Assembly (NCBI GenBank): GCA_043228905.1
Contig: JBHGNT010000013.1
Location: forward strand, 6,634,001-6,698,000
Length of the DNA stretch: 64,000 nt
From: Azolla caroliniana
Taxonomy: Eukaryota; Plantae; Polypodiophyta
Direction of reading: 5' to 3'
Made by a program: the position numbers and the translations under genes. Of the stretch, positions 745-54,700 are shown piece by piece; the stretch's first letter is position 1, and the number at the start of each line of letters is the position of its first letter. Below the pieces are notes generated by a model. The model worked only from the letters and a program-made list of their open reading frames with translations. It made no database searches and had not been told where the DNA came from.

Positions 745-775
<31 letters not shown>

Positions 776-1345
776 CTGCTCTCACTTCGCTCTCTCGGCT
801 AGAACATAAAATGAGCAACAACTATATAACTGTTTGCCCTAAGTCATATTTATACATATATGACTTTCGGGATATTTACAAATATAGCCTCAAGGGCTCT
901 TAGCAAACATATTCACAAATATGTCCCTGCATCCGGATCTCTCTCCGGGTACATTCGTCATCCGGCTCCGTAGCCGGGGTCTTCATCATCCGGATCCGTA
1001 TCCGGGTACTCTTCATCCGGCTTCATGCCGGGTACTCTTCATCATCCGGATCCGTATCCGGGTACTCTTCATCCGGCTTCATGCCGGGTACTCTTCATCA
1101 TCCGGATCCGTATCCGGGTACTCTTCATCCGGCTTCATGCCGGGTACTCTTCATCATCCGGATCCGTATCCGGGTACTCTTCATCCGGCTTCATGCCGGG
1201 TTCTCTTCATCATCCGGATCCGTATCCGGGTACTCTTCATCCGGCTTCATGCCGGGTTCTCTTCATCATCCGGTTCCGTAATCGCAACCGGGCTTGCCGT
1301 CATTCATCTCCGGACATCCCATCCGGAGGGACCGTAATCCCAACA
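483..1345 (-). repeat. A1 3' LTR (863 bp)
   Basis: Near-identical to 5467-6327; by eye 3 substitutions and one CT unit differ. Confidence 0.97.
981..1278. repeat. 56-bp (30+26) CCGG-rich tandem array in A1 LTR U3; second copy ~5963-6260
   Basis: gggtactcttcatcatccggatccgtatcc+gggtactcttcatccggcttcatgcc repeated about 5 times. Confidence 0.93.
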
Positions 1346-1355
1346 AACTCCCCCT
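1346..1355 (-). promoter_or_regulatory. A1 polypurine tract
   Basis: AGGGGGAGTT between the pol stop codon and the 3' LTR. Confidence 0.9.
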
Positions 1356-4300: not shown

Positions 4301-5435
4301 CGTGTCGGACATCCTTCAGCAGCATTTTGCATCCGGTTGATGTCATCAGCCACACGTCTCCTATGCCGGCAATCCGGCACGTACCTTCATTTCCCATCCG
4401 GACACAGCCATGCTCACCGGCTGTGTAGGATGAGAAGTATTTCTTCTCCGGGGTCAGGTGGAACGACGCTCCGGAATCGACCACCCAGGTCATCTCTACG
4501 CCGGCAAGGTTCAGCTCCCTCTCTTCGGTAATGAGCATTATCTCTTCTTCACTTGCCGCGATTGCCGTCGTTCCTTTCCGGTCCTGCCCTCGCCGATCCG
4601 AACCTCTCCGGTCTGTGGCTCCCCGGTATGCACCGTTTCTCTCCGGTGACTTCTTCGAATCGGTGTCGTCGGCTCCGTTGTCCTTTCGGTAATGCCGACA
4701 ATTCTTCCGGAAGTGCCCCGGCTTCCCACAGTGGAAGCATGTGGGTCTTCCTCTTGACTGCGACCGGGTCCCCGACTTCTCCCGTCTTTGCGGACTCCGG
4801 TTCCATTGTCTTCCTCGTTCCGATTCGGTAAGCAGCGCCTTCGAGTCGGAGGCCGGTTCTTTATCTCTCCGACGCGCTTCTTCATTTAGAATACTTGTCT
4901 TTACCGTTTGTAGAGACAAGTTATCTTCGGTGCAGGAGGTGCTGAGAGTCACCACCAAGTTCTCCCAGCTTTCCGGCAATGTACACATCAAGATGATGGC
5001 TTGCATTGCATCCTCCAACGGGAACTTGATCGCCGCAAGCTGGTTCACAAATCCCATGAACGTGCTTACGTGTTCCACCATACTCTCGCCGTCCCGGTAC
5101 TTGAGGTTCACTATCTTTCTCATCAGGGAGGTCCGGTTCAACGCATTCTTCCTCTCGTAGAGGCTCGACAGCTTCTTCCACATCTCGTATGCGTTGGTGT
5201 CGTTCGCCACATGTTGTAGGACGCTTACATCGACATATTGCCGGATCGTCGCTACGGCTTTCCGGTTCAGAAGCCTCCATTCCGTCTCAAGTACCCCCTT
5301 CGGTATTTCCGACCTGTCAATCGGTTCGTACAGGTCCCGAACAATCAGAAGATCCTCCATCTTGATCTTCCAGTCGGCGTAGTTTTGCGCATTCAGCACC
5401 ATCATCCCCGGCTGCCCGCTGCTGCCGCCTTCCAT
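1356..5435 (-). CDS. Copia Gag-Pol polyprotein (gag, CCHC knuckle, protease, integrase, RT, RNase H), 1359 aa
   Basis: Motifs CFHCGKPGHFRKNC, WVVDSGAS, WHKRLCH..CTDC, VHTDVC/RADNGGEY/NGLAERMNR, LLYVDDML, FTDSD..TEAEY..CDSQSA; first ATG after the PBS is at 5435. Confidence 0.96.
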   Translation of the reverse strand: MEGGSSGQPGMMVLNAQNYADWKIKMEDLLIVRDLYEPIDRSEIPKGVLETEWRLLNRKAVATIRQYVDVSVLQHVANDTNAYEMWKKLSSLYERKNALNRTSLMRKIVNLKYRDGESMVEHVSTFMGFVNQLAAIKFPLEDAMQAIILMCTLPESWENLVVTLSTSCTEDNLSLQTVKTSILNEEARRRDKEPASDSKALLTESERGRQWNRSPQRREKSGTRSQSRGRPTCFHCGKPGHFRKNCRHYRKDNGADDTDSKKSPERNGAYRGATDRRGSDRRGQDRKGTTAIAASEEEIMLITEERELNLAGVEMTWVVDSGASFHLTPEKKYFSSYTAGEHGCVRMGNEGTCRIAGIGDVWLMTSTGCKMLLKDVRHVPEVRLNLISAGRLDDEGYTGSIRNGVMKFSKGSLIVARARKVNTLYLMNARLCPEELNVAADTAGELWHKRLCHMSEKGMKRLAEDNLIPVKHVHLEKCTDCLAGKQNRTSFHSRPPTRRSAPLELVHTDVCQVETKSHGGAQYFVTFIDDHSRKLWTVPLKTKDQVLGVFKELHARVKRESGKKLKAIRADNGGEYRGQFQEYCRSKGIRLEFTVPKTPELNGLAERMNRTIMERVRSMLAHAKLPKGFWAEAMSTATYVINRSPSVPLDGDTPQRVWTGREVSYRHLKVFGCLAYVHVAKDRRGKLDPKTRPCIFLGYGDDEFGYRVWDPVDKKIFRSRDIIFMEDKTLADWESEKKMKSSKSTGEDKLYEEQSRPARDRLALEDPAEDGEETEPAEEEDENDTGTGPDPEMDSDEDEESEEPVTEAPKRRYPLRERRAPRRFPEPEHVLLTDEGEPESFEEAKHDTHSRRWLSAMQEEMDSLHENHTYELVELPKGKRALRNKWVFKLKPGDAGNPPRYKARIVVKGFQQKKGVDFNEIFAPVVKMTSIRTVLSIAASMDLEVEQMDVKTAFLHGDLEEEIYMQQPEGLEKKGKEHLVCRLKKSLYGLKQAPRQWYRKFDSFMTDEGYHKTQSDHCVFVKKFEGGDSLILLLYVDDMLIVGRDQVKIRMLKKALHRTFSMKDLGPARQILGMHIIRDRKKKQLWLSQEKYVTKVLHRFNMSEARPVGTTLPADCKLSSKQSPKTKAEKEDMMKVPYASAVGSLMYAMVCTRPDIGYAVGVVSRYMSNPGKEHWNAVKWILRYLKGTANVCLRFGSGKPQLDGFTDSDMSADADTSRSTSGYVMTYAGGAVSWQSRLQKTVALSTTEAEYMAAVEAGKEIIWMKDFIRELGIRQEEYRLYCDSQSAIHLAKNAAYHSRTKHIQRRYHWIRERIEDQEFVLTKIHTDENGSDMLTKVLTPDKLEACRKRIGLERHPMPK

Positions 5436-5451
5436 TTTCTGCACTGCCGTC

Positions 5452-5463
5452 GCTCTGATACCA
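5452..5463 (-). promoter_or_regulatory. A1 PBS (tRNA-iMet)
   Basis: TGGTATCAGAGC 3 nt downstream of the 5' LTR. Confidence 0.95.
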
Positions 5464-5466
5464 GTT

Positions 5467-6327
5467 TGTTGAAAACAGTGCTCGGCCACAACCGATAAAT
5501 AGGATTAACTCACAGAAAACAGGAAATACAAATGCACGAAGATAATGGAGAGAAGATTACACAGGATGTTTTACGTGGAAAACCCTAAATGGGAAAAACC
5601 ACGGGAGTCCTCAAACTCCAACTATCACTATGAACAGAGATGTACAATGGTGAAGCTTCAAGGCAACAACCTTGAGCTCACTGTCTTCGCCACAGGCGGC
5701 GGTAATACACAGAGGCAACGACCTCTTCGTCTCTCTCTCTCTCTCTCTCTCTCTCGGCTGCTCTCACTTCGCTCTCTCGGCTAGAACATAAAATGAGCAA
5801 CAACTATATAACTGTTTGCCCTAAGTCATATTTATACATATATGACTTTCGGGATATTTACAAATATAGCCTCAAGGGCTCTTAGCAAACATATTCACAA
5901 ATATGTCCCTGCATCCGGATCTCTCTCCGGGTACATTCGTCATCCGGCTCCATAGCCGGGGTCTTCATCATCCGGATCCGTATCCGGGTACTCTTCATCC
6001 GGCTTCATGCCGGGTACTCTTCATCATCCGGATCCGTATCCGGGTACTCTTCATCCGGCTTCATGCCGGGTACTCTTCATCATCCGGATCCGTATCCGGG
6101 TACTCTTCATCCGGCTTCATGCCGGGTACTCTTCATCATCCGGATCCGTATCCGGGTACTCTTCATCCGGCTTCATGCCGGGTTCTCTTCATCATCCGGA
6201 TCCGTATCCGGGTACTCTTCATCCGGCTTCATGCCGGGTTCTCTTCATCATCCGGTTCCGTAATCGCAACCGGGCTTGCCGTCACACATCTCCGGACATC
6301 CCATCCGGAGGGACCGTAATCCCAACA
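5467..6327 (-). repeat. A1 5' LTR (861 bp)
   Basis: Direct repeat of 483-1345, adjacent to PBS and TSD. Confidence 0.97.
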
Positions 6328-11379: not shown

Positions 11380-12584
11380 GGATGGAGTACCCGAGCTCAG
11401 GCAAGCATCAACGAAAGTACGGAAAAGCTATGGAAGGAGTGGTCACAACAGGCAGCGGAGCTGCAGACACTCTGAGCGGATGCCGAGAATCGGAGGAAGA
11501 CCGGTGACAAGTTCTACAAGATGGATGAAGAAAGTATCGTCACCATTCGGGAAGAATTGTCGGAGGATTTCTACACTTTAGCAGAGGAACACCTCAAAGA
11601 AATCCGAGGGTTGGTAGAGAGGTTGGATGACGGGCAGCTCGCAACTCAGTTGGAGTTGGAGAGATACGAGCAGGACCGGTTACGACAGGAAGCTAAGGGA
11701 AGAACGACGCCAATCACGATAAGTGAGGGAGAGCGACCGGCTGAAGATGAACCAACCGACACCGAACAACCCCGACGAGGAATACCCGAAGACGAACTTG
11801 AAGAAGAGCAGGAGCAGACCGATGCCGGAGAAGAAGAAGAGCTGAGACCGGAAGACACCAGAGCAGAGGAAGGAGGCATATCGAGTCGACCAGTCGAGAT
11901 CGGAGAAAGCGACACCGGTAACAGAACAGAGCCAAGAACGGCGGGAGAACAGGAAGAACCCGGACGAAGCGGTGAGGAAGCACCGACACCACAGAATCAA
12001 GCAGAGCCGGAGCAACAAATTTTTACAGAACAACCTACCCAACCGGAGGTCGGAGACCAGGCAGGCAAGGAACAGGAACAGGAGGAAGAAGCACCACTTG
12101 ACACCATCGAGCAAAGTGTGCTCGATATTTTGGAGGAAGACTGAGGCCGGGAGTGGATTCGAAGTGCAAGGCACTTTCCCACGGGCGTGCCATGTGTTGG
12201 CCGGTCAGAAGAGCAAGGACAAGTGGGAAGGCGGAATCGGATCGGATAATAGGAAGTAAATAATAGTAGAATTATTATTCGGAGGGACGGATCCGGTACA
12301 GTTGTACCGATCCGGATCCGGACCGATTCGGATGTCGGTTGCCTAAGCGCACCGATTGTAACCTTGCCGGATGCCTATAAAAGGATCTGATGATTTGTAA
12401 AGTTTTTGGACGGAAGTAATACAATAGTAATTATTGCGTGTTTATCTGTATCTCGTATTGTTTACCGTTTGTGCTTAATTGTAATCATCTTACGCGTGTA
12501 ACCTAGCATCCAATCCTTACCACACCTTTGTAGAAGTGTCGGATAGACACCTGTGTTGAGGCTAGTCCGGCCAGACAGGCAACA
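11380..12584 (+). mobile_element. Gypsy G2 fragment (G1-related): end of extra ORF (to 12144), tRNA-like motif 12153-12192, 3' LTR 12195-12584
   Basis: IREELSEDF..LDDGQLATQL and EQSVLDILEED* match the G1 extra ORF; LTR end (acacctttg..gaagtgtc..tagacacc.tgtgtt..gtccggcc..aaca) aligns to the G1 LTR. Confidence 0.85.
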
Positions 12585-12647
12585 CGATCTACCCGCCAAA
12601 AGAATCCTGTTTTGCGGTTCGGATACAATGAGTACATGGCGAATCAT

Positions 12648-13079
12648 TTAACTCTTCGGGCCGGACAATGGCCTAACACAGGGTGTCTACGTGAGACACT
12701 TCACCAAAGGGTGTTACGGCAACCGGATTAGACTTCAACGCTTAATCCGACTTAGTTAAGTTACTTATTAGGATCGTCTTTCATAACACGTGTAAGATAT
12801 AACAATTAAGACAGAACGGCAATTAACACAGAGAGATAACAACGCTTAAGCTTTCATTAATTAACCGCTAACTATTACATTGTATCCGGGCCTTTAAATA
12901 GGTTTCCGGTCTGTATTACAAAACGGTGCCATCCGCACCTGTTCGGGATCGGTCCGGATCTGGAACGGCATACCGATTCCAGTCCATCCGTCCACACTCA
13001 TAGCTTAATTACAACCACATTCCTACTACTTAATTAGCTCTCCGTTTCCCACTCTGGACTCCTTTGCCGGCCGGTAACA
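12648..13079 (-). repeat. G1 3' LTR (last 4 bp missing)
   Basis: Matches 27400-27831 with 2 substitutions seen by eye. Confidence 0.96.
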
Positions 13080-13081
13080 CA

Positions 13082-13121
13082 TGGCACGCCCGTGGGACAG
13101 TACCTTGTACGTCGAATCCAC
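13082..13121 (-). promoter_or_regulatory. tRNA-3'-end-like hairpin motif at the PPT position of G1 (reads as PBS TGGCACGCCCGTGGGAC on the + strand)
   Basis: GTGGATTCGACGTACAAGGTACTGTCCCACGGGCGTGCCA then TG then LTR; homologues at 12153-12192 and 53543-53582. Confidence 0.85.
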
Positions 13122-13133
13122 AACCGACCCTTG

Positions 13134-15909
13134 CTATTCTTCGTCCAAAATGTCCAGAATGCTTTGTTCGAGAGGCTCCAATGGTTCATCTAGAAGTGGT
13201 TGTTGTTGTTGTTGTTGTTGCTGCTCTATTGCTGTCTGCTGCGGCGGGTCCGTTGGTGGTTGCTGCGGCTGCTCCTCCGTTTGTGGCTCTGACACCGGCG
13301 TCTTCGTCGTTGCTCCCTGTGTCGTAGTGGTCTCCGGTTGACTGGTTCCCGGCAGGCCCTCAGCCGGCGACGGTTCCTCATCACTAAGGTTAACCGTTGT
13401 CGCTTCCTGTGCTTTTTCTTCCCGTACCCGGGACTGCTCGTAGCTTTCAAACTAGATTTGAGCGTCCAGCCTATCATCGTCTAGCTGAGCTACGAGCTGC
13501 CTGACCTGCGCCAGCTGTTCATCTGCCAGGACTTGGAAGTCGTTGGCCAGCTCGTCCCGTATGGCGGTGAAGTCCTCGGAAGTCAACGTATAACAGTCAT
13601 CTCCTTCCTTCCGCCGGTTTGCCACATCCGCCCGTAGCAACTGGAGTTCCGCCGCGTTTTGTGCCCACTTTGTCCACCATTTTACGGAGCTTTCATCAAT
13701 CAAGTGTTTCGTCTGATTCAGTCATGCCCGGAGGATAGACTGAATCCGACTCGTTCCCAATTGCGATTTGGTTTTCGCCGCTTGCCGTTCCTCCTTCAGT
13801 TGTTTGATGATTTTGACGTTGTCCTCCGCCTGCGCCTTGTAATGCGTCAATTGCCTTTGATATGTACTTTGTAATTTCTGCCATACTGTTGACGCTCTCT
13901 CTTTGTCTTCCTGCTGCTGCCTCTGGAGCTCCATCCGGACCTTCTCCGCCTCTTCCAAGCGTCTTGTATTTTCTGCCCGTTCGTCGGCGATCGCCGTCGC
14001 GGCCCGATCAACTGCCTGCTGGAGCTCGGCCATCCGTTCTTTATGCTCCGTTTCCAGCCGTTTGTAGTCCCGGTGCAGGTGCTCAAAATCATCCATCTTT
14101 TGCTTGAGCCGTGCGTTGATCTGACGACGGGCCCGGTCCTCGCGGTCCTTCTGTTGGCGGAGCTCTTCCTTTAGCAGTTCAATCTCTGTTTCCGCCATTT
14201 TCCGCAACTTGTCCTTTTCCTACAGCACTTTGTCTTTCTCCTCCTTTAGCCGGTCGTACGCTTGATGGCCTTTCTGGAGGCTCTCCTCTGCCCGACGGAG
14301 GTTCTCAGCAGTCTTTCTTTAATTCGGCTTCGGTCGGCGTCTTCAATTCTCGTTCATGGCTCCTTAGCGCTTCTTGTGCGGCAAGTTCCTCTCTCAATTC
14401 CGCAAGCTCCCGAGCTTGCGCCGCATCTCTCGCCGGAACGGTTTCCGTTGCCGGGGTCTTATTGCTATGTACAGGTCGTTCCGTTTCTTTATTCTGTACA
14501 CTTACCGGAGTCATCGGTGATTGGATCCGTATTTTGGCCATCTCTGTCGTGACCTGATCCAAATCTTTTTCAAGGCACCGGATTCTGGACCGGGCCGTCT
14601 CTAGTTCTTCGGTTGTGACGAGCAACCGTTCGCTTTGCGCTCTTTCTTCCGCCTCTATATACCCCACTGCTTCGGCTATTTGTTCGCCTATCCACCGGAG
14701 CCACAGGCTACCGGTGCCTTGTTGTGCTTGCACGGAGGTTTGATAGATGGGCTCACTTGTAGAGGGGTGGTCCCGCCTGGTTGCGCCGAGTTGCAGTTCC
14801 TTTTCTGCCCGTGGACCATCCTGTTGTCCTGGTTCCCGTTGCGCTTCTTCTTGGCTGACCGAGGGAGGCTACAGTGACCTTTCCGGCTCTAGCAGGATGG
14901 GACTTGCCGGTGTTGCCGGTGGTGCCGGGGCTTCTGTTTCTGGTGCCATCTGCACCGGTTCCGGTTCCTTCCTTGGCGTGGGAGTCTCAGTCTGGGGAGC
15001 CGGTGTTCCCTCCGTCTGAGGGTCCGAACGTTTCCCGGCTGTCTCAACGATCCTTGCCGACGACCATCGCTGGAGGTGCTTTGTAGGCTCCTCCTCTATT
15101 TCCTCCTCCTGAGCTCCGGCATTGAGCTTTGCCGCCAAGGGGTCCACTTCTCGATTCACCGGTCAGCGGAGTGTGACCTTTACGGGCCGTGCCGGTGGTT
15201 CCTCCTGCGCCTCCGTTGGGCGCTTCCGGCTTCCGCTTCCTGCTGCTGCCTGTTCTGCATCCACCGCCTTTCCCTTACTGGCCTTAGAGGCCAACAACTG
15301 TTGCCGTTTGGAAGCCATCCTTGGGGTGCCGTCCGGCACTCTTCCTCGCTTCTTGGGCTGGACGGTCTGAACGGGTGGCACCAGCAAGGTGAGCCACTGC
15401 GTTACGGCGTGCCATATCCTTCGTCCGTCTCGGCCTTCTTTGCCGTCTTTGCCTCTGACGATCTCGATCGCCGCACACAACCCGTCTGCAATCAATACCG
15501 GCCAATCCACCTTGATCCCTTCATAGGTGGCGATGATCATCCCTGCCCGGTTCTGCGGCATGACAGGGGTTCTAGGGTACACGTGGCCGTACTCATGGAG
15601 CACACGAGCAATTTCGCAGAACAGCATATCCCCGCTGCCCTGTGTCCGATAGCCCTTGCTGGCTAGAGAGTACTCACCAAAATACCTGATGAGTTGCTCC
15701 GGGGTTGGATTGTCGATCGTGAGTATGCCTCCCTCCGGAAGGCCTGTTAATGTTCGAATCGCCTCTGCCGTTATGACCTCTGTATCGATTTCCTTGATCA
15801 CTTTGTCGGCTTCTTTGTGTGGCGGTACTTCCATCATCATCAAGAAGCCCTCGAGCCCGTGTTGCTTCAGCCATGTCTTGGCGGCTTCCGACAACGTTTG
15901 CGGGTCCAT
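13134..15909 (-). pseudogene. G1 3' extra ORF (~920 codons, disrupted): globular N-terminus, Pro/Glu linker, coiled coil, acidic tail
   Basis: Successive minus-strand ORF pieces 15163-16131, 14869-15159, 14305-14733, 13722-14207, 13452-13703, ending LEQSILDILDEE*. Confidence 0.75.
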
Positions 15910-16291
15910 CTCTGTGTCGGCGTCGGATTGCGGTGGCGAGGATGGATGGTGATGAGAGTGGGGTTGAGAAAGAGAGAGTTCAGAAGGCAGGGGTTCTTTG
16001 TGTGCAGGTTCTCGTCTGATGATCTTGCAGCGTTTCGGTGCTTCTGTGCTCCTGGGTTCGCGAAAGTAGAGGGTCTCTACGCGCAATGGTTTTTGTCTGT
16101 GCATTCTGGCGCCTTTTTCGAGTTTGTGCATGTCGCATACTTAAAATAGCATTATGTCCTGTGGTGGCGCTTTAAATGCCCACTACGTACCTTTTCGCTC
16201 CATGCTCTTTCCTCCATTCATTCCTCGCTTTTGCATGATTGTTTTTTTTTTTTTTTTTTTCTTTTCAGTTATTATTATTCTTAGTGTGACG

Positions 16292-19200
16292 TCACATGTC
16301 CGTTGGTCCTCCCGGACCCTTACCGGCCTCATTCTCTCCGGTTCCCGGCTTGCCGTCTCTGCTGTCTTGGTGGTTGTCGTCTCTGCCGTCTTGGTGGTTG
16401 CCGTTGGTCCTTTGCTCAAATGGGTTCTTAGGCATCGGTCCTCTATATGCCTTTAACCGGAATCCGTTGACCCATTTGCCCAGCACTTCGCCGGCAAGTG
16501 TCCCCAACTGGTAGGACCCATTATACTCCCGTGTTAGCCAATATGGTCCGGTCCATCTAAACCTTAGTTTACCCGGCATCTTGCCCATCCGGGTTTGGAA
16601 TACTAACACTGGTTTGCCGATTGCGAACATTTTTTCGTTACCTTTCCTGTGCCGGTTGACGAATGCTTTCCGTCGCCGTTGCTCCAATTCTAAATGTAGG
16701 ATGCTGGCCAACCGTTGTTCCTCCAGCTCACACAGCGCTGTCAACCTTATTGTCTCCGACTCCTTCTCGTTCAGCCGTTCTCGTAGCTGGATCCGTAAGC
16801 TAGGTACTTGAAATTCTACCGGCATGAGCGCCTCGAGTTCGAACGCCAACCGGAACGATGTTGTTCGGATGCTCGTTTTGTATGCCGTCCGGTATGCCCA
16901 AAGCGCGCTATGTAGCTTTGTGTCCCAATCCGTCCGGTTCTCGTTGACGATCTTCCGAAGGATGTTCTGGAGCGTCTTGTTTGTTGATTCCGCTAATCCG
17001 TTCGCCTGTGGATAGTAAGGTGTGCTTCGTTTGTGGACCACGGCATAGAAGGTCATTAGGCTTTCCACTACTTGTCCGAGAAAGTGCCCCCCTTGGTCAC
17101 TTATCAATTCAATGGGGCATCCGTAACGGCACCAGATGTACTCATATAGAAACTTTGCCGTTGACGCAGCGGTGTTATCCCGTACAGCTTTGGCCTCCAC
17201 CCATTTCGTGCAGTAATCCGTAGCAACGATAACGTACCGATTACTCGTTCTCATTGCCGGTGGCTTGAACGGTCCTACAAAGTCCAGTCCCCACTTTTGG
17301 AATGGCTCGAGTGGTAGTACCGGCTGGTGTGGCATACGAGCCTGCTCCGTTGGCTGGCCCATTCTCTGGCATAGGTCACATTCTTTTGCGTACCGTACCG
17401 CATCTCTTAATGTCGTTGGCCACCATAGGCCACTTTGCCATATTTTTCTGGCTGTCGCATCTCCGGCATAGTGACCTCCGGCAACTCCGCAATGGGCTTC
17501 CCTCAGTATCAGTTCCTTTTCATCGCTGCGCACCGCCCGTCTCCATATGCTATCAGCGCCCTTGTGGTACAGTGTGTCTTGCAGTAAGCAGAAATGTCGG
17601 CTTTGTACCGCCAGGCGTTTCCGTTCGTCCTGGTTCAGCTCTTCCGGAGGCAGTCCTGTGCTCAGAAACTGGTGCATATTTGTGAGCCACTTGTCTTCTT
17701 GGGCCACTGTCTCATCTGCTGCCGTCTCCGTAGTGACTCGAAACAGCTCCGCATCCGGAAACTCATCCGGTACTCCGTCACCCGTCTCTCCGGACTCCAA
17801 TCGGCTTAAGTAATCCGCTACGGCATGCTGTATACCGGGTCGGTGGAATATTTCAAACTTGAACTCCTGTAACAATAAGGTCCATCGGGCCAATTTGCCG
17901 GTGAGTGACGCCTTGGACACCAGGTAAAGGAGTGTCGAATGATCTACATGGAAGGAAAACTTCCTTCCCAATAAATAGTGCCGAAACTTTGTCACACTGT
18001 AGATCATTCCTAGAGCTTCCCGTTCCGTAGTAGAGTAGTTCCGTTCTGCTTGGGATAGCTTTCGGCTGGCATAGTACACTGGCTGGTACCACTTTGGTTC
18101 CGTAAGCTGCATCAGTACGCTTCCGATTGCGATGTCGGAGGCGTCCACGAACACGTGAAATTCTTTACTCCAATCTGGAGGTTGTACTACCGGTGCCTGC
18201 GACAATATTACCTTGAGGGCCTTATACGCCCTATCCTCAGTATTGGTCCACTGGAATGGTGTCCGATGTACGGCGGCATGCAACGGTGTAGCCAGGTCGG
18301 CCAAGTATCGGAGCATCCGGCTGTGCCACCGGATCTGGCCTAAGAACCGGCTTAATGCCTTTGCCATTGCCGGCGCCGGTGCTTCGAATATGGCTTTCAC
18401 TTTGTCCGGGTCGACTGCAATACCTTCCTGGCTCATGATATGTCCTAATAAAGTTCCACTGGACACGCCAAATACACACTTTGCCGGATTCAAGCTTAGC
18501 CGGTACGCTCTACACTTTTCTAGACAAAGACGGAGGTGCTGAAAATGGTCCTCCTCCCGGCCATAGACGACTACGATCGGGCTTAGCCATGTCGCTTTCT
18601 TTACCGGACGGATAAAGCCAACTCTTAGCAGTTTGTCGATTTCTTCCTTGACCTTGGCAGCATAATTGGGATTCATCCGGTACCGTCTTTGTGCCACTGG
18701 TTTTGCGTACTTGCTCAAGTGCACTTGATGCTGGTATAACTGAGGGTCGAGTCCTCGCATGTCTTCGTATGACCAGGCGAATACGTCGCGAAATTCCGTG
18801 AGAGGTGTTATCATCGTTGTTTTGTCTCCGGACTTCATCTCCTTGGCGATGTGCACCGGTTTTGCTTCGTCCGTGGTGCCTAAATTCACCTCTTCTAGTT
18901 GCGATGCTTTTACGCGCTATGAAACGGCCATTTCCCGTTCCAACGCTTCCTGCGCTTGCCGTAACTCCCGGATTGCGTCTTTATCCGGTTCTGCTTCCGC
19001 CTCTTCCGGTTGCGGTAAGTACGGTGCTACGGCTTCGGCAATGTCAATTTCAAAGAGGGGTATGATCTTCGGGTTTTCCTGCAGGTATTGAGCTTCTTCT
19101 TCGTCCGCTAACCCTTCGAGCATGTTGACGCATTCTGCATACAACGGTGTACATTCCTTGCCAGTGCTCGTCCTTGGCTATGTTGGTACCCGTACCTTGG

Positions 19201-20634
19201 CTTTTCCTCGCCGGAAGGTAATTATATTTTTTCGCCAATTTTGTTTGATATGTGCCATTTTCAACCATGGCCGCCCCATCAATAGCGGGTATGCGCCTTG
19301 TGCCTGTAATTGTAGCACTACGGCCGAGATGTGAAATGTATGCCCGCCGACGGTGACTTCTAATTTCCGTATTAATCCTGTCGGCCGCACTGAGCTTGTA
19401 TCGGCCATCCGCAACCAGAACGGACACGGCTCCCACTCGTGGATTCCTAGGTCATCACACGTCCGGAGGCTTATTACATTTACCCCAGAGCCTCCGTCTA
19501 TAACTGTGCCGGGGAGTTCTTTCCCTTTTACAATGGCAGTGATTACCGGACTGTTGGTGTCTACCACTGTTGGTCCCTCCTCCGGATTCGAGAAGAGTAC
19601 CGATGCCGGTGATGGTTCTCCTGCCGTCATGGCCGTCTTCAGTCCTTCCGTGAATCTAGGCACGAGTTGTAGGAGTCTTCCTAGTGGTAACGTAATCTGG
19701 CATTCTTGCAACGCCTGCCATGTCTCGTTCTCGGAGTGACTACCGCCGGCAAGCCCTGCGGTGTTCTCCTTTTGCTGTTGTAAGTCTGTGACATTCTGCT
19801 CCTTTGCTTTCTTTACCCATTCCGTTGCTTGTTTGCGGATGGTCTCCTGTGTCTCCCATTCTTTGGCCATGCCCTTCGACCTTGTGGTCACCTGCTGCAG
19901 GTCTGCTACCTCAGGGACTACCATATTTACCGCCGGTCGTTTTTCATAGCTCTTCACCGGGCATTGGTTACTATAATGGCCTTCCTGTCGGCAGTAGTAG
20001 CAGTAGGCTTTCCGGGCATTGCTAGATTCGGCCTTGTCTGTTGTACCCGAGGCAGGTCCTACGGTACGCGTGGGGTTTTGTACCGGTTGGTTACTTGGAG
20101 CGCCTTGTTCCGGATCCCGGGGGTAGCCGCCTTTTTTGAAATGCCGTTTTTTGTTAAAGCTCTTCTTATTATGGTACTCTTGATGGGGTTGCCCGTTATA
20201 TCTGCCGTATTCCTCCCGTTGCTGACGATACCCGGGGGAGTGCTCCCGGTCGTACTGTTTGTATCGTCTATTGTAATCCTGGTACCGATCATGCCGGTCA
20301 TAGTTATATCTCGCCGATCACCGTACCGGACATCATTTTCCCATTGCTCGCCATACCAGACATCATTTTCCCGTCGCTCGCCATACCGGACATCCTGTGC
20401 CGGTCGGTCACGGTCCATTCGCCGCCAGCGTTCGTCTTCTTCATCCCGGCTGCTACGTGGCTCAATTTGTCGGATGGGCCGTGCTTGCCGAGTCAACAGA
20501 TTATACTCGCACCTATCCGTCATATGGCTCTTGGATTGACAGATTACACATTGCGTCCTCATAGTGCATTCTAGAGCCGAGTGTCCGAAATTCAAGCAGG
20601 TTGTGCACTGTATTGCTTGCCGAAACCGGAGGTC
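16292..20634 (-). pseudogene. G1 gag C-terminus, protease, RT (catalytic core deleted), RNase H, integrase
   Basis: CCHC knuckles, VIDGGSGVN, WLSPIVVV fused to YGREEDH, FVDASD..TEREAL..VDH, HCGVAGGH..CDLC, WGLDF/SDQG/NGLAE; premature stops near 19178 and 18917. Confidence 0.93.
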
Positions 20635-20898
20635 TGTTGAAAAACAGTGCTCGGCCACAACCGAGGAATAGGATCAACTCACAGAAAACGGGAAATACAA
20701 AGTGCACGGGGACAATAGAGAGAAAGGTACACTGGATATTTTACGTGGAAAACCCTAAATGGGAAAAACCACGGGAGTCCTCAAACTCCAACTATCACTA
20801 TGAACAGGGATGTACACTGGTGAAGCTACAACGCAACAACCTTGAGCTCACTGTCTTCGCCACAGGCGGCGGTAATACACAGAGGCAACGACCTCTTC

Positions 20899-20933
<35 letters not shown>

Positions 20934-23900
20934 CTGCTCTCACTTCGCATAAAAATGAGCAACAACATTTAAACTGTTCGCCCTAAGTCATATTTATACA
21001 CATATGACTTTCGGGCTATTTACAAATATAGCCTCAAGGGCTCTTGGCAAAACATATTCACAAATATGTCCCCGCATCCGGATCTCTCTCCGGGTACATT
21101 CGTCATCCGGCTCCGTAACCGGGGTCTTCAGCATCCGGCTCCGTAGCCGGGGTATTCATCTTCCGGCTCCGTAGCCGGGGTCTTCATCATCCGGCTCCGT
21201 AGCAAGGGTCTTCAGCATCCAGCTCCGTAGCCGGGGTATTCATCATCCGGCTCCGTAGCCGGGGTCTTCATCATCCGGCTCTGTAGCCAGGGTCTTCATC
21301 ATCCGGCTCCGTAACCGCAACCGGGCTTGCCGTCATTCATCTCCGGACATCCCATCCGGAGGGACCGAAATCCCAACAAACTCCCCCTTCACTTCGGCAT
21401 GGGATGTCTCTCCAATCCGATCCTCTTCCGGCATGCTTCCCAGCTTGTCGGGTGTGAGCACTTTGGTCCGCATATCTGAGCCGTTCTCGTCCGTGTGGAT
21501 CTTCGTCAGCACGAACTCCTGGTCTTCTATCCTTTCCCGGATCCAGTGATATCTTCGCTGGATGTGCTTCGTCCGGGAGTGATAGGCCGCGTTCTTCGCA
21601 AGGTGGATGGCACTCTGACTGTCGCAGTAGAGTCGGTACTCCTCCTGCCGGATACCGAGCTCTCTAATGAAGTCCTTCATCCATATCATTTCCTTGCCGG
21701 CTTCAACAGCCGCCATGTACTCCGCCTCCGTGGTTGACAACGCAACCGTCTTCTGCAGCCTCGACTGCCACGAAACAGCTCCCCCTGCATACGTCATCAC
21801 ATACCCTGATGTGGACCGGCTGGTATCTGCATCAGCCGACATATCCGAATCGGTAAAGCCGTCGAGTTCGGGCTTACCGGAGCCGAATCGGAGGCACACG
21901 TTTGCCGTGCCCTTCAGGTATCGGAGTATCCACTTGACCGCGTTCCAGTGCTCCTTGCCGGGATTGCTCATGTACCGGCTCACCACAACGACTGCGTATC
22001 CTATGTCCGGTCTTGTACACACCATTGCGTACATCAAGCTTCCGATGGCAGAGGCATATGGTACTTTCATCATGTCCTCTTTCTCAGCCTTTGTCTTGGG
22101 GCTTTGCTTGCTGGACAACTTGCAGTTTGCCGGGAGAGTTGATCCGACCGGTCTTGCTTCCGACATGTTGAACCGGTGAAGCACCTTTGTTACGTACTTC
22201 TCCTGTGACAGCCACAACTGCTTCTTCTTCCGGTCTCGGATGATGTGCATCCCTAGTATTTGCCTCGCCGGACCCAGGTCCTTCATTGAGAAGGTTCGGT
22301 GAAGTGCTTTCTTCAGCATCCGTATCTTGCCCTGGTCCCGTCCGACGATCAACATGTCGTCCACGTACAGGAGGAGTATTAGAGAGTCTCCTCCTTCGAA
22401 CTTCTTCACAAACACGCAGTGATCGGACTGCGTTTTGTGGTACCCCTCGTCGGTCATGAAGGAGTCAAACTTCCGGTACCATTGCCGGGGACCCTGCTTC
22501 AGTCCGTAAAGGCTCTTCTTCAACCGGCATACCAGGTGCTCCTTCCCTTTCTTCTCGAATCCTTCCGGTTGCTGCATGTAGATCTCTTCTTCGAGGTCAC
22601 CGTGAAGGAATGCCGTCTTCACGTCCATCTGTTCTACCTCGAGGTCCATGCTTGCCGCTATGCTCAGCACCGTCCGGATGGAGGTCATCTTCACTACCGG
22701 GGCAAATATCTCGTCGAAGTCGACGCCCTTCTTCTGCTGGAACCCCTTCACCACGATCCTGGCTTTGTATCTCGGGGGGTTTCCGGCATCTCCCGGTTTC
22801 AGCTTGAACACCCACTTGTTTCGAAGTGCCCGCTTTCCTTTCGGCAACTCCACAAGTTCATATGTGTGGTTCTCATGCAGGGAATCCATCTCCTCCTGCA
22901 TGGCACTTAACCACCTGCGGCTATGGGTGTCGTGCTTTGCTTCTTCAAAGCTCTCCGGATCCCCCTCGTCGGTTAGCAGCACGTGCTCTGGTTCCGGAAA
23001 TCTCCGGGGGGCCCTTCTCTCTCTTAGAGGATATCTCCGTTCCGGAGCTTCGGTAACCGGCCCTTCCGTTTCCTCTTCATCCGAATCCATTTCGGGATCG
23101 GGGCCGGTTCCGGTATCAGTTTCATCTTCCTCGGCCGGTTCTGTTTCTTCACCGTCTTCGGCCGGATCCTCGAGTGCTAACCGGTCCCTTGCCGGTCGGG
23201 ACTACTCCTCGTAGAGTTTATCCTCACCGGTCGACTTGGTGCTCTTCATCTTCTTCTCCGACTCCCAGTCGGCGAGTGTCTTGTCCTCCATGAAGATGAT
23301 ATCTTGACTCCTGAATATCTTCTTGTCGACCGGGTCCCATACTCGGTAGCCGAACTCGTCGTCGCCGTAACCGAGGAATATGCATGGCCGGGTCTTTGGA
23401 TCTAACTTTCCTCTCCGGTCCTTTGCCACATGCACGTATGCGAGACACCCGAACACCTTCAGATGCCAGTAGGACACTTCCTTACCAGTCCACACTTTCT
23501 GCGGCGTGTCCCCGTCCAAAGGTACTGAGGGTGATCTATTTATCACATACGTCGCCGTCGACATTGCCTCAGCCCAAAACCCCTTGGGTAATTTCGCATG
23601 CGCCAGCATACTCCGGACCCTCTCCATTATGGTCCGGTTCATCCTCTCGGCCAGCCCGTTCAGTTCCGGCGTCTTCGGCACAGTAAACTCGAGCCGGATT
23701 CCCTTCGAGCGACAGTACTCCTGGAACTGCCCCCGGTATTCCCCTCCGTTATCCGCTCGTATCGCTTTCAGCTTCTTGCCGGATTCCCTTTCCACTCTCG
23801 CGTGAAGTTCTTTGAAGACGCACAACACTTGGTCCTTTGTCTTCAACGGTGCCGTCCACAGCTTCCGGCTGTGGTCATCAATGAATGTCACGAAGTACTG

Positions 23901-25758
23901 GGCTCCGCCATGTGACTTCGTTTCTACTTGACACACGTCAGTGTGCACCAGCTCCAATGGTGCGCTACGTCTCGTCGGTGGCCTTGAGTGGAAGGAGGTC
24001 CGGTTTTGCTTACCGGCCAGGCAGTCGGTGCACTTCTCCAGGTGCACATGCTTCACTGGAATAAGGTTGTCTTCTGCAAGCCTCTTCATCCCCTTCTCAC
24101 TCATGTGGCACAGTCTCTTGTGCCACAGCTCACCGGCAGTGTCGGCTGCCACGTTCAGCTCCTCCGGACATAGCCGGGAATTCATCAGGTACAGTGTGTT
24201 GACCTTCCGGGCCCGAGCCACTATCAGGCTCCCCTTGCTGAACTTCATGACACCGTTCCGGATGCTACCCGTGTAGCCTTCATCATCTAGCCTCCCGGCC
24301 GAGATCAGGTTCAATCGGACCTCCGGAACGTGTCGCACATCCTTCAGCAGCATCTTGCATCCGGTTGATGTCATCAGCCACACGTCTCCTATGCCGGCAA
24401 TCCGGCATGTGCCTTCATTTCCCATCCGGACACAGCCGTGCTCACCGGTTGTGTAGGATGAGAAGTATTTCTTCTCCGGGGTCAGGTGGAACGACGCTCC
24501 GGAATCGACCACCCAGGTCATCTCTACACTGGCAAGGTTCATCTCCCTCTCTTCGGTAATGAGCATTATCTCTTCTTCACTTGCCGCAAGTGCCGTCGTT
24601 CCTTTCCGGTCCTGCCCTCGCCGATCCGGACCTCTCCGGTCCGTGGCTCCCCGGTATGCACCGTTTCTCTCCGGTGACTTCTTCGAATCGGTGTCGTCGG
24701 CTCCGTTGTCCTTTCGGTAATGCCGACAATTCTTCCGGAAGTGCCCCGGCTTCCCACAGTGGAAGCATGTGGGCCTTCCTCTTGACTGCGACCGGGTCCC
24801 CGACTTCTCCCGTCTTTGCGGACTCCGGTTCCATTGTCTTCCCCGATTCGATTCGGTAAGCAGCATCTTCGGATCGGAAACCGGTTCTTTATCTCTCCGA
24901 CGCGCTTCTTCGTTCAAAATGCTTGTCTTTACCGTTTGTAGAGACAAGTTATCTTCGGTGCAGGAGGTGCTGAGAGTCACCACCAAGTTCTCCCAGCTTT
25001 CCGGCAATGTGCACATCAGAATGATGGCTTGCATTGCATCCTCCAACGGGAACTTGATCGCCGCAAGCTGGTTCATGAATCCCATGAACGTGCTCACGTG
25101 TTCCACCATATTCTCACCGTCCCGGTACTTGAGGTTCACTGTCTTCCTCATCAGGGAGGTCCGGTTCAACGCATTCTTCCTCTCGTAGAGGCCCGACAGC
25201 TTCTTCCACATCTCATATGCGTTGGTGTCGTTTGCCACATGTTGTAGGACGCTTACATCGACATATTGCCGAATCGTCGCTACGGCTTTCCGGTTCAGGA
25301 GCTTCCACTCCGACTCTATTACTCCCTTGGGTATCTCGGCATTGTCGATTGGTTCGTACAGGTCTCGGACGATGAGAAGGTCTTCCATCTTTATCTTCCA
25401 GTCGGCGTAGTTCTGTGACTTCAACACCATCATGCCCGGAGGCCCACTACCGCCGCCTTCCATTTTCTGTGTTAACCTCGCTCTGATACCACTTTGTTGA
25501 AAAACAGTGCTCGGCCACAACCGAGGAATAGGATCAACTCACAGAAAACGGGAAATACAAAGTGCACGGGGACAATAGAGAGAAAGGTACACTGGATATT
25601 TTACGTGGAAAACCCTAAATGGGAAAAACCACGGGAGTCCTCATACTCCAACTATCTCTATGAACAGGGATGTACACTGGTGAAGCTACAAGGCAACAAC
25701 CTTGAGCTCACTGTCTTCGCCACAGGCGGCGGTAATACACAGAGGCAACGACCTCTTC

Positions 25759-25801
<43 letters not shown>

Positions 25802-26217
25802 CTGCTCTCACTTCGCATAAAAATGAGCAACAACGTTTAAACTGTTTGCCCTAAGTCATATTTATACACATATGACTTTCGGGCTATTTACAAATATAGC
25901 CTCAAGGGCTCTTGGCAAAACATATTCACAAATATGTCCCCGCATCCGGATCTCTCTCCGGGTACATTCGTCATCCGGCTCCGTAACCGGGGTCTTCAGC
26001 ATCCGGCTCCGTAGCCGGGGAATTCATCATCCGGCTCCGTAGCCGGGGTCTTCATCATCCGGCTCCGTAGCAAGGGTCTTCAGCATCCGGCTCCGTAGCC
26101 GGGGTATTCATCATCCGGCTCCGTACCCGGGTCTTCATCATCCGGCTCCGTAACCGCAACCGGGCTTGCCGTCATTCATCTCCGGACATCCCATCCGGAG
26201 GGACCGAAATCCCAACA
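20635..26217 (-). mobile_element. Copia A2 full-length element inserted in G1 gag; LTRs 20635-21378 and 25495-26217; PBS 25480-25491
   Basis: TSD AGGTC at 20630-20634 and 26218-26222; TG..CA LTRs; PPT 21379-21388. Confidence 0.97.
21389..25463 (-). pseudogene. A2 gag-pol with a premature stop (23202-23204) and a +1 frameshift near 21440
   Basis: Colinear with A1; CAG>TAG after KLYEE; extra C in cttcccagc. Confidence 0.93.
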
Positions 26218-26222
26218 AGGTC

Positions 26223-27344
26223 TTCATCGGACGGTAACGCCCGTTGAAGTGCGCCCAGTGTGAGCCAGGAGCTTGTCTTTTCCATCTCTTTCACCTGGTC
26301 GATGGTACTTGTGCGGAAATCGATTACCGTGCAAACCGTGCGTAGGGGTTGCCGGAGCGCGTTTAGGAATATCGTCCGTAATTCCTCCTCCGGGGGTGCA
26401 CGGGCAAGCTGACTATGCATCCGTTGAAACCGGATGAAAAATTGTGGAATGCTCTCCCCTGCCTCTTGCCGGATGGTATAAAATAAGCCTACCATTACGG
26501 TCTGGTCCACCTCCTTTTGAAAAAAATGCATGAATTTAGCTTTTAAATCTGCAAAGGTGTTGATGGTAGACGGGTCCTGCGTCCGGCGCCATCTTGTTGT
26601 CGGTCCCTCCAATGTGACGCCAAACTCTGCTATCTTAGAGCGTTCTTCTTCCTCCGGTGTCAGTCGCTGGGACACATGGTTGGCTTCCCATGTCTGTTCA
26701 AAGGCGTGCACATGAGCTTCCGCGTCCGGATCATCTCTATACTGGAACGACATGTCATCGTCCGGTATCGGTGCGCGGGCTGGTAGTGTTGGTGCTCGTT
26801 CCGGAATTTTCTCTGGTGTCGGTGGTCTTTCCCGATTTGATTCCGGTGTTGGTTGTTTCTCTTCCTTTGGTGAGGGAGGCCTCTCCTCTTCGACTTCCGG
26901 TGTCGGAGGTCGTTCTTCTTCTGCTGGTTCCTGGGGTTCCAGCGTTAGCACTTTCGGTTCCGGTTCCGGTGTCGGTAAGGTATCTGATCCTTCGTCCTCC
27001 GGTTCGCCCGGGGTTTCGTTACTGCTACGGTAGTTCGTGTGCACGCTGTATTCCCCTTCGGAGTCCGATTCATATGCTGAAAAGGCCTTTGCTTCGCCTT
27101 CTCCGTTTGCCAACACGTGGAGAAGGGATTCGGTTTCCCGGAGGCTGCTTAGGCTGCTGCCGTCGTCCGGGTGCGATGTTTGCTGTAACCAGAGGGAGTT
27201 CTCCGCTACTCTCCGGATTACGTTGGAAAATGAGCGATCCGCTCTAATTTCCTGCGCCGCTTGCTAGAAAGCCTCGCGTCTGCTTTGCCTTTCGGCAAGG
27301 TGTCGAGTTCGATCTGTAACCAGGTCGTGCGTTGATCTAGACAT
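26223..27344 (-). pseudogene. G1 gag N-terminal part
   Basis: ATG at 27344 in frame with the 26172-27116 ORF, stop at 27264-27266; DAEAHVHAFEQTW..LEGP..IRQEAGESIPQFFIRF capsid-like motifs. Confidence 0.85.
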
Positions 27345-27380
27345 CCATCCGTGCCGTCGTTCGCTGCAAAAATAGGAATC

Positions 27381-27390
27381 GTGGTCGCCA
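27381..27390 (-). promoter_or_regulatory. G1 PBS (probably tRNA-Arg UCG)
   Basis: TGGCGACCAC 5 nt (GTTTT) after the 5' LTR; complementary to the recalled plant tRNA-Arg(UCG) end GTGGTCG-CCA. Confidence 0.8.
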
Positions 27391-27395
27391 AAAAC

Positions 27396-27831
27396 TGTGT
27401 TAACTCTTCGGGCCGGACAATGGCCTAACACAGGGTGTCTACGTGAGACACTTCACCAAAGGGTGTTACGGCAACCGGATTAGACTTCAACGCTTAATCC
27501 GACTTAGTTAAGTTACTTATTAGGATCGTCTTTCATAACACGCGTAAGATATAACAATTAAGACAGAACGGCAATTAACACAGAGAGATAACAACGCTTA
27601 AGCTTTCATTAATTAACCGCTAACTATTACATTGTATCCGGGCCTTTAAATAGGTTTCCGGTCTGTATTACAAAACGGTGCCATCCGCACCTGTTCGGGA
27701 TCGGTCTGGATCTGGAACGGCATACCGATTCCAGTCCATCCGTCCACACTCATAGCTTAATTACAACCACATTCCTACTACTTAATTAGCTCTCCGTTTC
27801 CCACTCTGGACTCCTTTGCCGGCCGGTAACA
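27396..27831 (-). repeat. G1 5' LTR (436 bp)
   Basis: TGTTACCGG..TTAACACA on the minus strand. Confidence 0.96.
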
Positions 27832-51700: not shown

Positions 51701-54700
51701 AGAATGCAGCCTACCATTCCCGGACCAAGCACATCTAGAGGAGATATCACTTGCTCTGGGAGAAGGTAGAAGATTAAGACATCGTGCTCACGAAGATCCA
51801 CACAAAGGAGAACGGATCGGATATGCTCACCAAGGTGCTTTCAACCGACAAGTTGGATGCGTGCGGAAGATGGATCGGATTAACAGGAAATCCTATGCCA
51901 GAGTGAAGGGGGACTTTGTCAAGAATTTGGTCCCTCCGATTGGGATCTGGAAGGGTTCCGGATGAGACTCGGAAACCGGATCGAGTGAATCCGGATGGAT
52001 CCGGTGCAAACCGGATTCAAGGACATATGTGTAAATATGTTTCATAGTGAGCCCATCGAGGCTATATTTGTAGATAGCCCAAATGTCATATAAGAATAAA
52101 TATGACTTAGGGCAATTACTTTAAAATGTGATGTGATTATTGTGATTTGTTGTATACAGAGAGTGTAAGAGAGGGAGAGAGAAAGATATAGAACTAGTTT
52201 CTATTTGTAACCGCCATTGGCGAAGACATAGAGGTCGAGGTCATTGCCTCTGATTCTCACTTTGTATTCCTCCTCTCATAGTGATAGTTGGAGTCTGTGG
52301 GCTCCCGTGGTTTTTCCCGTTTAGGGTTTTCCACATAAACATCATGTGTCATCTCAGTTTCAGTTTGTTCTCTTCTATTCCTTATTGAAGACTCGGTTGT
52401 GGTCGAGCGTTATTTCCGTACATGCCGAACAAATGGAGACGGGCGATCCGGATAGCCGGCCGAACGGAGAAACATCGACAAAGACGAAGATGGTTGGACA
52501 AGGCCGGTGACGACGAGAAGTGGAGACGGTGATGGCCGAGACATAGATGATAAGTGCGGGGACGATGGTTATAACAAACGGAGACGCCAGGATGAATAGC
52601 AACGGTAGGAGAGCTGGCGGGATGAACAGACAACAACATAGACGCCGAAATGTGGTTGGACAACAGCAGAGCGGCCGGAATGAGCAAACAACCAACGACC
52701 GGAGTGGAGGCCAAACAAGGTGATGGATGATGGCCGAAGCAATGGCCAGAACACCAACGATTGGGCGGTGGCAGTGCCGAACACAGAGCTGCCGAGCGAT
52801 GGAGACAACGACGGACAACCGACCCACGGGCAGAGGAAGAATGGGAAAATGACGTCGTATAGGGAAATGATGAAGCAAAGTGGAAAGAGAAGCAACGGTA
52901 GCATAATATAGAAAAAGAAGAAGAGAAAGATAGAAGAAAGGGAAGAAGAGAAGAAAGACAAGACGTAGGAAGAAAGCAAGGAGAAGAAAGAAAGGAATAT
53001 GGAAGAACATAGATGGAAGAGAAGAGATACACAACCAAGAAGATGGAGTCAAAGAGAAAGACAAAAGAAAAGAAGAAGAAAGCATAAACTGACACAGGCA
53101 GGTAGAAAAGACCAACAAACACGAAAAGAGAAGAAATGAGGAAAGATAGGAAGACGAAACAGAAAAGAGAGGGGGAAAAAGAGAACCATAATGAGCATCC
53201 TAGAATTTCGAAAGGGCATTGTTGGAATTTAAAATAAAAAATAAAAAATCACGAGGTTACATAATATAATATTTTTTTAAAAACCAAAGGGCCTCACCAA
53301 AATTTTGAAAACTCGCAACTACTCACACAAAATCAACAAAAGGAATATACACATACACACAATGTTTTTTGAAGACCCAAATGATGATACCAATGTTTGT
53401 GAATCGACAAAACGAGAATCTTCATGTTGAGGAAGATTCGCTGACCAAAAGAGATGTTCGAGTCAAGCGTTCCGATAGAGAGAGTCGATCGATGAGAGGA
53501 CAGATGGAAGTTCAGGTCGAGGAAAGATGACGATCAAGGCATGTGGGATCGACATGCGAGGCACTCTCCCACGGGCATGCCATAATGTGTTACCATACGA
53601 GCTGTATGGAGACTGAGGGTGGAATGTTATAATGTTGTTTATGTGAATGTCTAAATGTGTAACTGTAATTGTGAGTGTGAGTAATTACGTTGTCGCGAAG
53701 TTTCGCGTGCGTGTGTTACTTGGGCGGGACCACAGGGGTCTTGGACTAGGGACTACTCAAGGGAAAAATAATTATTTATTTATTTATTTTAAATCTTATA
53801 AATATAAAGTACTCTTCGAACCCACTCTACGAACTCACTCTACGAATCCTCTCTACAAACTCACTCTACGAATCCTCTCTATGAACGCACTCTGCGAACC
53901 CTCTCTACGAATCCTCACTCTATGAATCCTCCTCGACCAAGGGCTCGTTGCCCTTTGTTTTATGAGGTCAGTGGCTTTCGTTGTTCATGACTCATCGACC
54001 TTTCGAGATCACCGCACGAGCCAAGTGATCAAACGGGTACAAGCAAAGATGAGTACGCAAGATGAACGCACAAGGGGACGATAACACAAACACGAATGAT
54101 ATCAGCCAAAGAAATAAATACGTGTTCAATTCCAACGCTAGAGGACCCTTTATAAAATAGGGTTTGATTACAAAGGCAACTTCTAGTCAACCACAAGCTC
54201 AACCAAAACATAAATACTAAATGCCCTTAGAGACAAGAGCAAAACCAATCACAACGAAGATGAACACACGAGCACCACCAAAATGCCAACCCCAACGAAC
54301 CACGACCACCCAAACGGCGAGCACACGGGCTTGCAACGACAAACGGAGCGAAGCAACATCGAACCAACGAAGCTTGGGCTCATGAGCACTTCGAGTGCCA
54401 ACACAAAGAAGACGAGCACGTGGCGATGAGGGGTATGAAGAGATGAAGAGAAGAGGTGAAGAAGAAGATGAAGAGCTCCGAAGGAAAAATGGCGATAGTC
54501 TCCTCCCAAAACGTTCCCCCCCAAAATGAGCCCCCCTCGACCTCCTTTTATAGGAAAAAAAGAAGAGGGGTTGCCAATTTTGTCTTCAATGCAAAAGGAA
54601 TAAAATTCTTTAAATCATGTTGCATTGTAAGATCGGATTTGAACCGTGCACCTCTAGCTAGAGGTGAATGTCATTATCCACTAGCCCATTAACTCTACCT

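Follow-up and report, generated by a model that had tools for sequence, protein, structure and literature searches.

A Ty3/gypsy clade in which a tRNA-Arg 3'-arm copy stands in place of the polypurine tract, and its probable role in plus-strand priming

How does an LTR retrotransposon start its plus strand when no polypurine tract (PPT) precedes its 3' LTR? In LTR elements a tRNA primes minus-strand DNA at the primer binding site (PBS), the strong-stop DNA is then transferred, and the RNA is degraded by RNase H. The combination of a tRNA at the PBS with a PPT is the canonical arrangement of Ty3, retroviruses and plant LTR elements in the pertinent sections of two accounts (PMC5371799, PMC12789967). 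The question is raised by G1, an element in a stretch of 64,000 nucleotides of Azolla caroliniana DNA (the window), for which the original prediction held that the PPT is missing and that a copy of a tRNA-Arg 3' end stands in its place. Our analysis bears this out, and the copy turned out to be larger than first noted. G1 is a Ty3/gypsy LTR element on the minus strand of the window, with two LTRs, a PBS, and gag followed by the order RT-RH-INT:

27398..27831, minus strand: 5' LTR of G1, TGTTA...TAACA, with a 7-nt spacer to the PBS
27359..27390, minus strand: PBS of G1, TGGCGACCAC, and a downstream T-loop contact (CGAAC, a T-loop complement, 28 nt from the PBS start)
26172..27263, minus strand: gag ORF of G1, with a Retrotrans_gag match
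20635..26218, minus strand: nested Copia element with a 5-bp target-site duplication (TSD), inside G1 gag-pol
16292..20317, minus strand: pol of G1 (protease region, RT, RNase H, integrase), with about 100 aa of RT deleted
13134..16140, minus strand: broken 3' extra ORF region of G1, in sense orientation and common to clade members
12648..13079, minus strand: 3' LTR of G1, terminal CA missing, no TSD

The two LTRs, compared over 27400-27831 and 12648-13079, are identical at 430 of 432 bases. Compared with its intact relative P0001, G1 is defective, with 2 frame changes, 2 stops and an RT that lacks about 100 aa. It has RNase H motifs, and the search for an extra archaeal-type RNase H (aRH) gave no further RNase H family match in the G1 ORFs. 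All ORFs, as well as the TATA-like and CT-rich parts of the LTR, face the sense direction. No TSD is found, the right end is damaged and both flanks read as one Copia linker; we infer a small deletion behind the missing terminal CA and the absent TSD. A second element, G2, is inserted 63 nt away in the opposite orientation, in the same Copia integrase-RT linker (12585-12647; 27832 onward). The nested Copia belongs to a family with three copies in the window (483-6327, 20635-26218 and 41645-47137), whose LTR carries 28/56-nt tandem repeats and a (GA)n tract and one copy of which has an open 1382-aa frame.

As had been described, the sense strand before the 3' LTR reads ...GTCCCACGGGCGTGCCA-TG-TGTTACC. 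The last 20 nt before the LTR contain 9 purines with a longest run of 3, and the nearest purine run of at least 8 lies 332 nt from the LTR start; ordinary purine tracts are present in the Copia elements of the same window. The other strand of the site reads LTR-CA-TGG..., which is indeed the geometry of a PBS, and the 5' LTR has its own PBS, TGGCGACCAC, at 27381-27390, where the original prediction had placed it. Beyond that description, the match continues across a 13-nt hairpin (13099-13111) to tRNA positions 49-58, so that the site comprises 40 nt, GTGGRTTCGA + 13-nt insert + GTCCCAC-GGGCGTG-CCA:

13112..13121, minus strand: copy of tRNA 49-58 (5' strand of the T-stem and T loop)
13099..13111, minus strand: 13-nt hairpin inserted between tRNA positions 58 and 59, with compensatory changes across families
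13082..13098, minus strand: copy of tRNA-Arg(UCU) 59-76 with one base (65/66) missing; its plus strand is the PBS-like site
13080..13081, minus strand: 2-nt spacer, TG, between CCA and the LTR start

The RNA of the element and the tRNA hence differ by the 13-nt insert and one base. A search for a tRNA gene or a full mimic at the site found no cloverleaf, acceptor stem or intact T loop, and no ARAGORN or Rfam match. In G1 the stop of the 3' extra ORF lies about 12 nt before the site. A sense extra ORF occurs throughout the clade (G1 13134-16140 on the minus strand, L011, L027, L066 and G2); it has no Pfam family, appears coiled-coil-like, and its conserved end, ...ILDIL(D/E)xx and a stop, lies shortly before the tRNA-like site.

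The tRNA end given in the original prediction is correct: according to the supplementary table rows of PMC8662596, nuclear ArgTCT of Agrostemma and Silene ends GTGGGTTCGAGTCCCACCGGGCGTGCCA. A match of 11 nt ending in CCA is provided by this plant tRNA-Arg(UCU), which is an angiosperm sequence and may not be that of the host. In the same rows, plant ArgTCT isodecoders differ by C or T in CCCAC-C/T-GGGCGTG (14 and 16 rows), and this variable position is the one at which the site lacks a base (65/66).

Could the site be a peculiarity of one damaged element? With up to 3 mismatches, the tRNA-like motif has 4 matches in the window against a mean of 0.11 in 100 shuffles, and motif and LTR start occur together 3 times, against none in 200 resampled windows. 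The match at 28989, inside Copia coding sequence, was rejected as chance. Outside G1, the site belongs to the following features:

12153..12584, plus strand: G2, a 3' fragment, with the site at 12153-12192, a 2-nt spacer and a different LTR at 12195-12584
near 35395-35820, plus strand: likely 5' LTR of E3, with a damaged PBS at 35826
53543..53587, plus strand: site and 5-nt spacer of E3, an old and apparently non-coding element, before the LTR start at 53588

E3 (35395-37016 and 52423-60276, plus strand) looks non-autonomous, with about 2.4 kb of internal sequence, a PBS of the G1 type and the 3' site. There is a difference of about 38 nt between the starts of its LTRs. A decayed Gypsy relative of G1 at 30346-35400 (minus strand), with 64% DNA identity over RNase H, is cut inside the integrase and has lost its 3' end. 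The LTR element at 53691-59847 (minus strand) is Phygy-like: its PBS, TGGTGAACCCGACGTGA, we take to be of the tRNA-Trp type, its flanks ACGT/ACAT resemble an NCGN TSD, and its LTR start, TGTCGCG, is like that of L004. It carries an internal duplication (56957-57683/57747-58473), and no pol match was seen in it.

Relatives were collected by a protein-based scan of metagenome contigs that was blind to the motif, from the best 80 of 528 confirmed stretches in 7 of 64 parts scanned. Four of them (L011, L014, L027 and L066, with integrases 70-90% identical to that of G1) reach the 3' LTR junction; all four have the site and none has a normal PPT, other close loci ending within 1.7 kb of the integrase and standing outside this count. 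In L014 the site lies at the contig start, before LTR and PBS, an arrangement that is likely a collapsed repeat. Before the LTR the longest purine run is 3 in each of the seven site-bearing elements, compared to 8-11 in the 4 outgroups measured. Among 8 outgroup loci with LTR pairs, purine runs are clear in 5 and decayed in 3 (L063, L074, L077), and the site occurs in none. A fuzzy motif match in L013 was rejected for want of a hairpin and an LTR start. Two motif scans of IMG/VR gave one unrelated-looking match and none, respectively; a protein scan there found only 2 distant loci, and a PBS-pattern scan no plant element. ARAGORN found no plant tRNA on 84 loci; L002 carries at 298-391, on a viral contig, a 94-nt tRNA-Arg(UCU) whose variable region is unusually long.

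Summed contig depth in public runs (two organism labels and a leaf metagenome) also peaks on the site: in X1 it amounts to 954,000 at 13090-13093 and to 47,000 and 67,000 on the flanks, values that do not represent copy number. Because many contigs diverge at 13073-13076 and 13119-13122, many families appear to share just this block, with the qualification that contig placement on the window favours motif-bearing copies and that seven elements were read. In one public-run comparison the sole variant of at least 1% inside the site is 13090 C>T, which is wobble-compatible. A second comparison showed 13117 T>C (25% in X1), which restores full complementarity to the tRNA, 13108 T>C (about 9% in X1) without a change of the partner base, and 13114 G>A (up to 3%), which mismatches the tRNA.

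In an integrase tree, G1 and the four relatives fall into one 14-row clade (SH 100), a branch apart from Athila-like rows (SH 99; angiosperm and conifer), Tat-like, Riccia and other rows. The tree was built with FastTree from the integrase only (61 rows, midpoint root); 45 rows, mostly near-duplicates and short pieces, were left out, and L014 and L066 were added below the length cut. Eight rows are labelled as having a PPT, of which L063, L074 and L077 have only decayed purine runs. The clade as a whole has indeed lost the PPT and has a tRNA-Arg arm at that position. In the tabulated descriptions of PMC6317226, the clade resembles Athila, Phygy, Selgy and Tat in its RT-RH-INT order, the lack of a chromodomain match, a PBS for a tRNA other than Met and a 3' extra ORF; the lack of an aRH match is shared with Athila, Phygy and Selgy, and sets G1 apart from OTA/Tat, which requires aRH. 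According to the same descriptions, the PBS of OTA/Athila is mostly tRNA-Asp (72%), Asn or Ala, Phygy has a tRNA-Trp PBS and a 4-bp NCGN TSD, and Selgy has a tRNA-Ala PBS and a short size, and they report no PPT replacement for any of these groups (PMC6317226). The G1 clade, in contrast, has an Arg PBS instead of Asp, Trp or Ala and does not group with OTA/Athila, and the flanks of G1 and G2 are not NCGN. G1 is a non-chromovirus-like Ty3/gypsy element without aRH, set apart from Phygy and Selgy by the tabulated PBS and TSD patterns. Protein matches place the source of the DNA among the land plants; for one Copia protein the named matches do not exceed 72%.

Which parts of the site are held constant, and which are free to change? 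Across the seven elements, the tRNA arm is reproduced at 177 of 189 compared positions (one extra base of L014 set aside); over its last 28 nt the reference arm does not differ from plant ArgTCT. Of the 12 differences, 7 are wobble-compatible (G-T/G-U, if the tRNA pairs with the minus strand) and 5 are mismatches; this excess of wobbles is slight (4 sites vs 1 among transitions) and might reflect decay by methylation. In G2 position 59 goes with the hairpin rather than with the tRNA, and in E3 it is a mismatch. The distance from CCA to the LTR start is 2 nt in six of the seven elements (TG, TG, GG, TG, AG, TG) and 5 nt in the old E3. The insert measures 13 nt in all seven. Its stem is paired in 94.8% of cells, compared to 32-52% in slid controls, and it covaries in 3 pairs (both partners altered in 7 cells, 0 of 500 shuffles), the structure having been drawn from the same seven sequences that were tested. 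The six tRNA-like pairs of the site show no variation. The hairpin folds on either strand, a long hairpin folds in the sense RNA of G1, G2 and E3, and whole-site folding is no better than that of shuffles (z -1.3 to +0.4). When cofolded with the tRNA, the minus strands of all seven form a split duplex with the hairpin looped out (-14 to -33 kcal/mol, vs -1 to -9 kcal/mol for the sense strand and shuffle minima of -11 to -13 kcal/mol); these values were obtained with RNA parameters and a bacterial surrogate tRNA, identical over the last 28 nt and found with a motif-made pattern. The GTDB scan with a motif-made pattern, which is not independent, gave 14 bacterial tRNA-Arg genes, 13 UCG and 1 UCU.

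The PBS of the clade has the same split design. It is of the Arg type in G1, L011, L014 and L027. Among the available rows of plant tRNAs, that of G1 has a 10-nt match to tRNA-Arg(UCG), and G1, L014 and E3 share this Arg-UCG type although their 3' site is Arg-UCU. In L011 and L027 the PBS is of the ArgTCT type (13-14 nt), i.e. it uses the same tRNA as the 3' site, which implies such a tRNA in their hosts. In all four coding clade members a short PBS (10-14 nt) is followed by CGRAC, a complement of the T loop, at 28-34 nt, and the 3' site has its parallel in CGAAT at 32 nt. This pattern, recognized post hoc, is found after the PBS in none of 12 outgroup stretches (for L076 a look-alike was caught instead of its PBS), is absent in E3 and has a background of 2.6% per window. 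The spacer on the PBS side is 4-7 nt long (G1 27391-27397; L011, L014, L027), compared to 2 nt on the 3' side, and in the same four elements both spacers begin with C after AACA on the strand ending there.

We hypothesize that tRNA-Arg anneals to minus-strand DNA at the site and primes the plus strand, which we regard as probable; comparative sequence evidence supports the original prediction that a second tRNA may serve as plus-strand primer. The cycle would begin with the steps established for LTR elements, from tRNA priming at the PBS to removal of the RNA. From the sequence and the computed fold, the cleared minus-strand DNA would then display the complement of tRNA 49-76, leaving one tRNA base bulged and, at 58/59, the 13-nt hairpin of the DNA looped out. 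Either the whole tRNA or a 3' half no shorter than 28 nt would anneal, and RT would extend its CCA end by 2 nt and then through the LTR. RNase H would remove the primer and integrase would trim the 2 extra bases. The internal site would be copied from the RNA of the element and not from the tRNA, and the gap and the wobble variants would be inherited in this way.

A plus-strand primer sets the left end of the LTR. CCA lies 2 nt before the LTR in six of seven elements and those 2 nt vary, which favours tRNA priming; whatever primes the plus strand here should therefore end at or next to CCA and be either a tRNA or RNA of the element itself, and because G1 has RNase H motifs an ordinary RNA stretch is expected to be degraded. 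The same reading is favoured by a sequence that is fixed where it matches the tRNA and elsewhere free but paired, by the gap at the isodecoder-variable base, by the split duplex in seven of seven minus strands, by the split design of the PBS and the use of the same tRNA there in L011 and L027, and by the variants 13090 C>T and 13117 T>C. Against it count the strand-neutral hairpin that folds no better than shuffles, position 59 in G2 and E3, the weakness of the wobble bias, the 5 mismatches among the 12 differences, and the variants 13114 G>A and 13108 T>C, the latter suiting a G-U pair in RNA over one in DNA. In the main rival explanation, RNA of the element itself would serve as primer. Shielded from RNase H by its hairpin, it would be cut after CCA, and its 10-nt tail would stay on the minus-strand DNA as a tRNA-like built-in primer. 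The long hairpin that folds and covaries in sense RNA, position 59 of G2 and the 13108 variant are consistent with such a primer, which would also make a second host factor unnecessary. A primer matched to its own cDNA would tolerate any change, yet the tail is tRNA-identical across integrases that are 70-90% alike. Moreover, the sense RNA does not mimic a tRNA (an acceptor stem is missing, the T loop is split by 13 nt, the G53-C61 pair is broken in three of seven, and ARAGORN and Rfam give no match), and the gap at the isodecoder-variable base and the matching design of the PBS would be left unexplained. We consider this explanation unlikely.

Might the site instead act as a PBS on antisense transcripts which undergo reverse transcription of their own, as in a mirror replication, or serve another tRNA-guided control of antisense RNA? 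The LTR-CA-TGG... geometry fits, and both LTR ends show AACA-C before the primer site; sense replication would still be without a plus-strand primer, and the ORFs and the TATA-like and CT-rich LTR parts all face the sense direction, so that we judge this very unlikely. That the site pairs with the element's own PBS, joining the RNA ends for strand transfer or packaging while another signal primes the plus strand, would suit L011 and L027, where PBS and 3' tail are complementary over 10-11 nt. It seems highly improbable, considering that G1, L014 and E3 combine an Arg-UCG PBS with an Arg-UCU site and that the neighbourhood of the LTR start is free of purine tracts. A one-off accident (an assembly error, PPT decay or the PBS of an element nested head to head) might be suspected in an element that is defective, nested and damaged at its right end. 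This is scarcely credible and already largely refuted by seven elements with the same site and spacing and different LTRs, by the continuity of the site with the shared extra ORF, and by public runs under two organism labels, in which summed depth is high and many flanks diverge.

For tRNA priming of the plus strand, the wider proposal is that a whole and abundant clade of plant elements dropped the PPT and relies on a pair of host tRNAs as primers, the first on RNA and the second on minus-strand DNA, with the same split docking (acceptor arm, hairpin, T-loop contact). Among LTR retroelements this would be the first case of a plus strand primed in trans by the host, a proposal that we hold to be rather likely. 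Our search of the full-text literature, with subscription papers, Repbase notes and large REXdb supplements outside its range, returned no account of a tRNA site replacing the PPT.

Split contacts with a tRNA are found in other retroelements. In the HIV-1 primer activation signal an acceptor-arm duplex is likewise combined with a T-arm contact and a loop between them, in genomic RNA and at the minus-strand start. As described in the relevant section of PMC5371799, the bipartite PBS of Ty1 and Ty3 also has a short acceptor-arm duplex, a second T-arm contact and a loop between; there the tRNA complement is in genomic RNA and starts the minus strand, whereas in the G1 clade it is present only on minus-strand DNA, at the plus-strand start. 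The site works like a PBS turned towards minus-strand DNA. As far as the sections cited above describe canonical elements, the clade shares with them the order LTR-PBS-gag-pol-LTR, the tRNA-primed minus strand, RNase H and integrase, and a primer ending just before U3, and it differs in having a tRNA 3'-arm copy at the position of the PPT. The Helenus and Cassandra TRIMs also contain tRNA-derived sequence within an LTR element; in the passages of PMC10886601 concerned with it, this sequence serves as a Pol III promoter within the LTR, a PPT is still present and the author rules out a role in priming, whereas in the G1 clade the tRNA-like sequence is internal, replaces the PPT and ends in CCA. 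The pertinent part of PMC10986323 deals with PBS priming only.

Whether the primer is a host tRNA or a built-in hairpin, the start signal would be new in either case, and annotation tools relying on a PPT would likely miss or downgrade the G1 clade. Reviews, in their sections on priming, treat PPT priming as a feature shared by retroviruses and LTR retrotransposons; the success of a lineage that lacks it would mean that the plus-strand primer is replaceable. The finding also raises the question of how RT and RNase H would deal with a DNA-bound tRNA and achieve its exact removal. In such a lineage both strands would come under the control of the host's supply of tRNAs and tRNA fragments.
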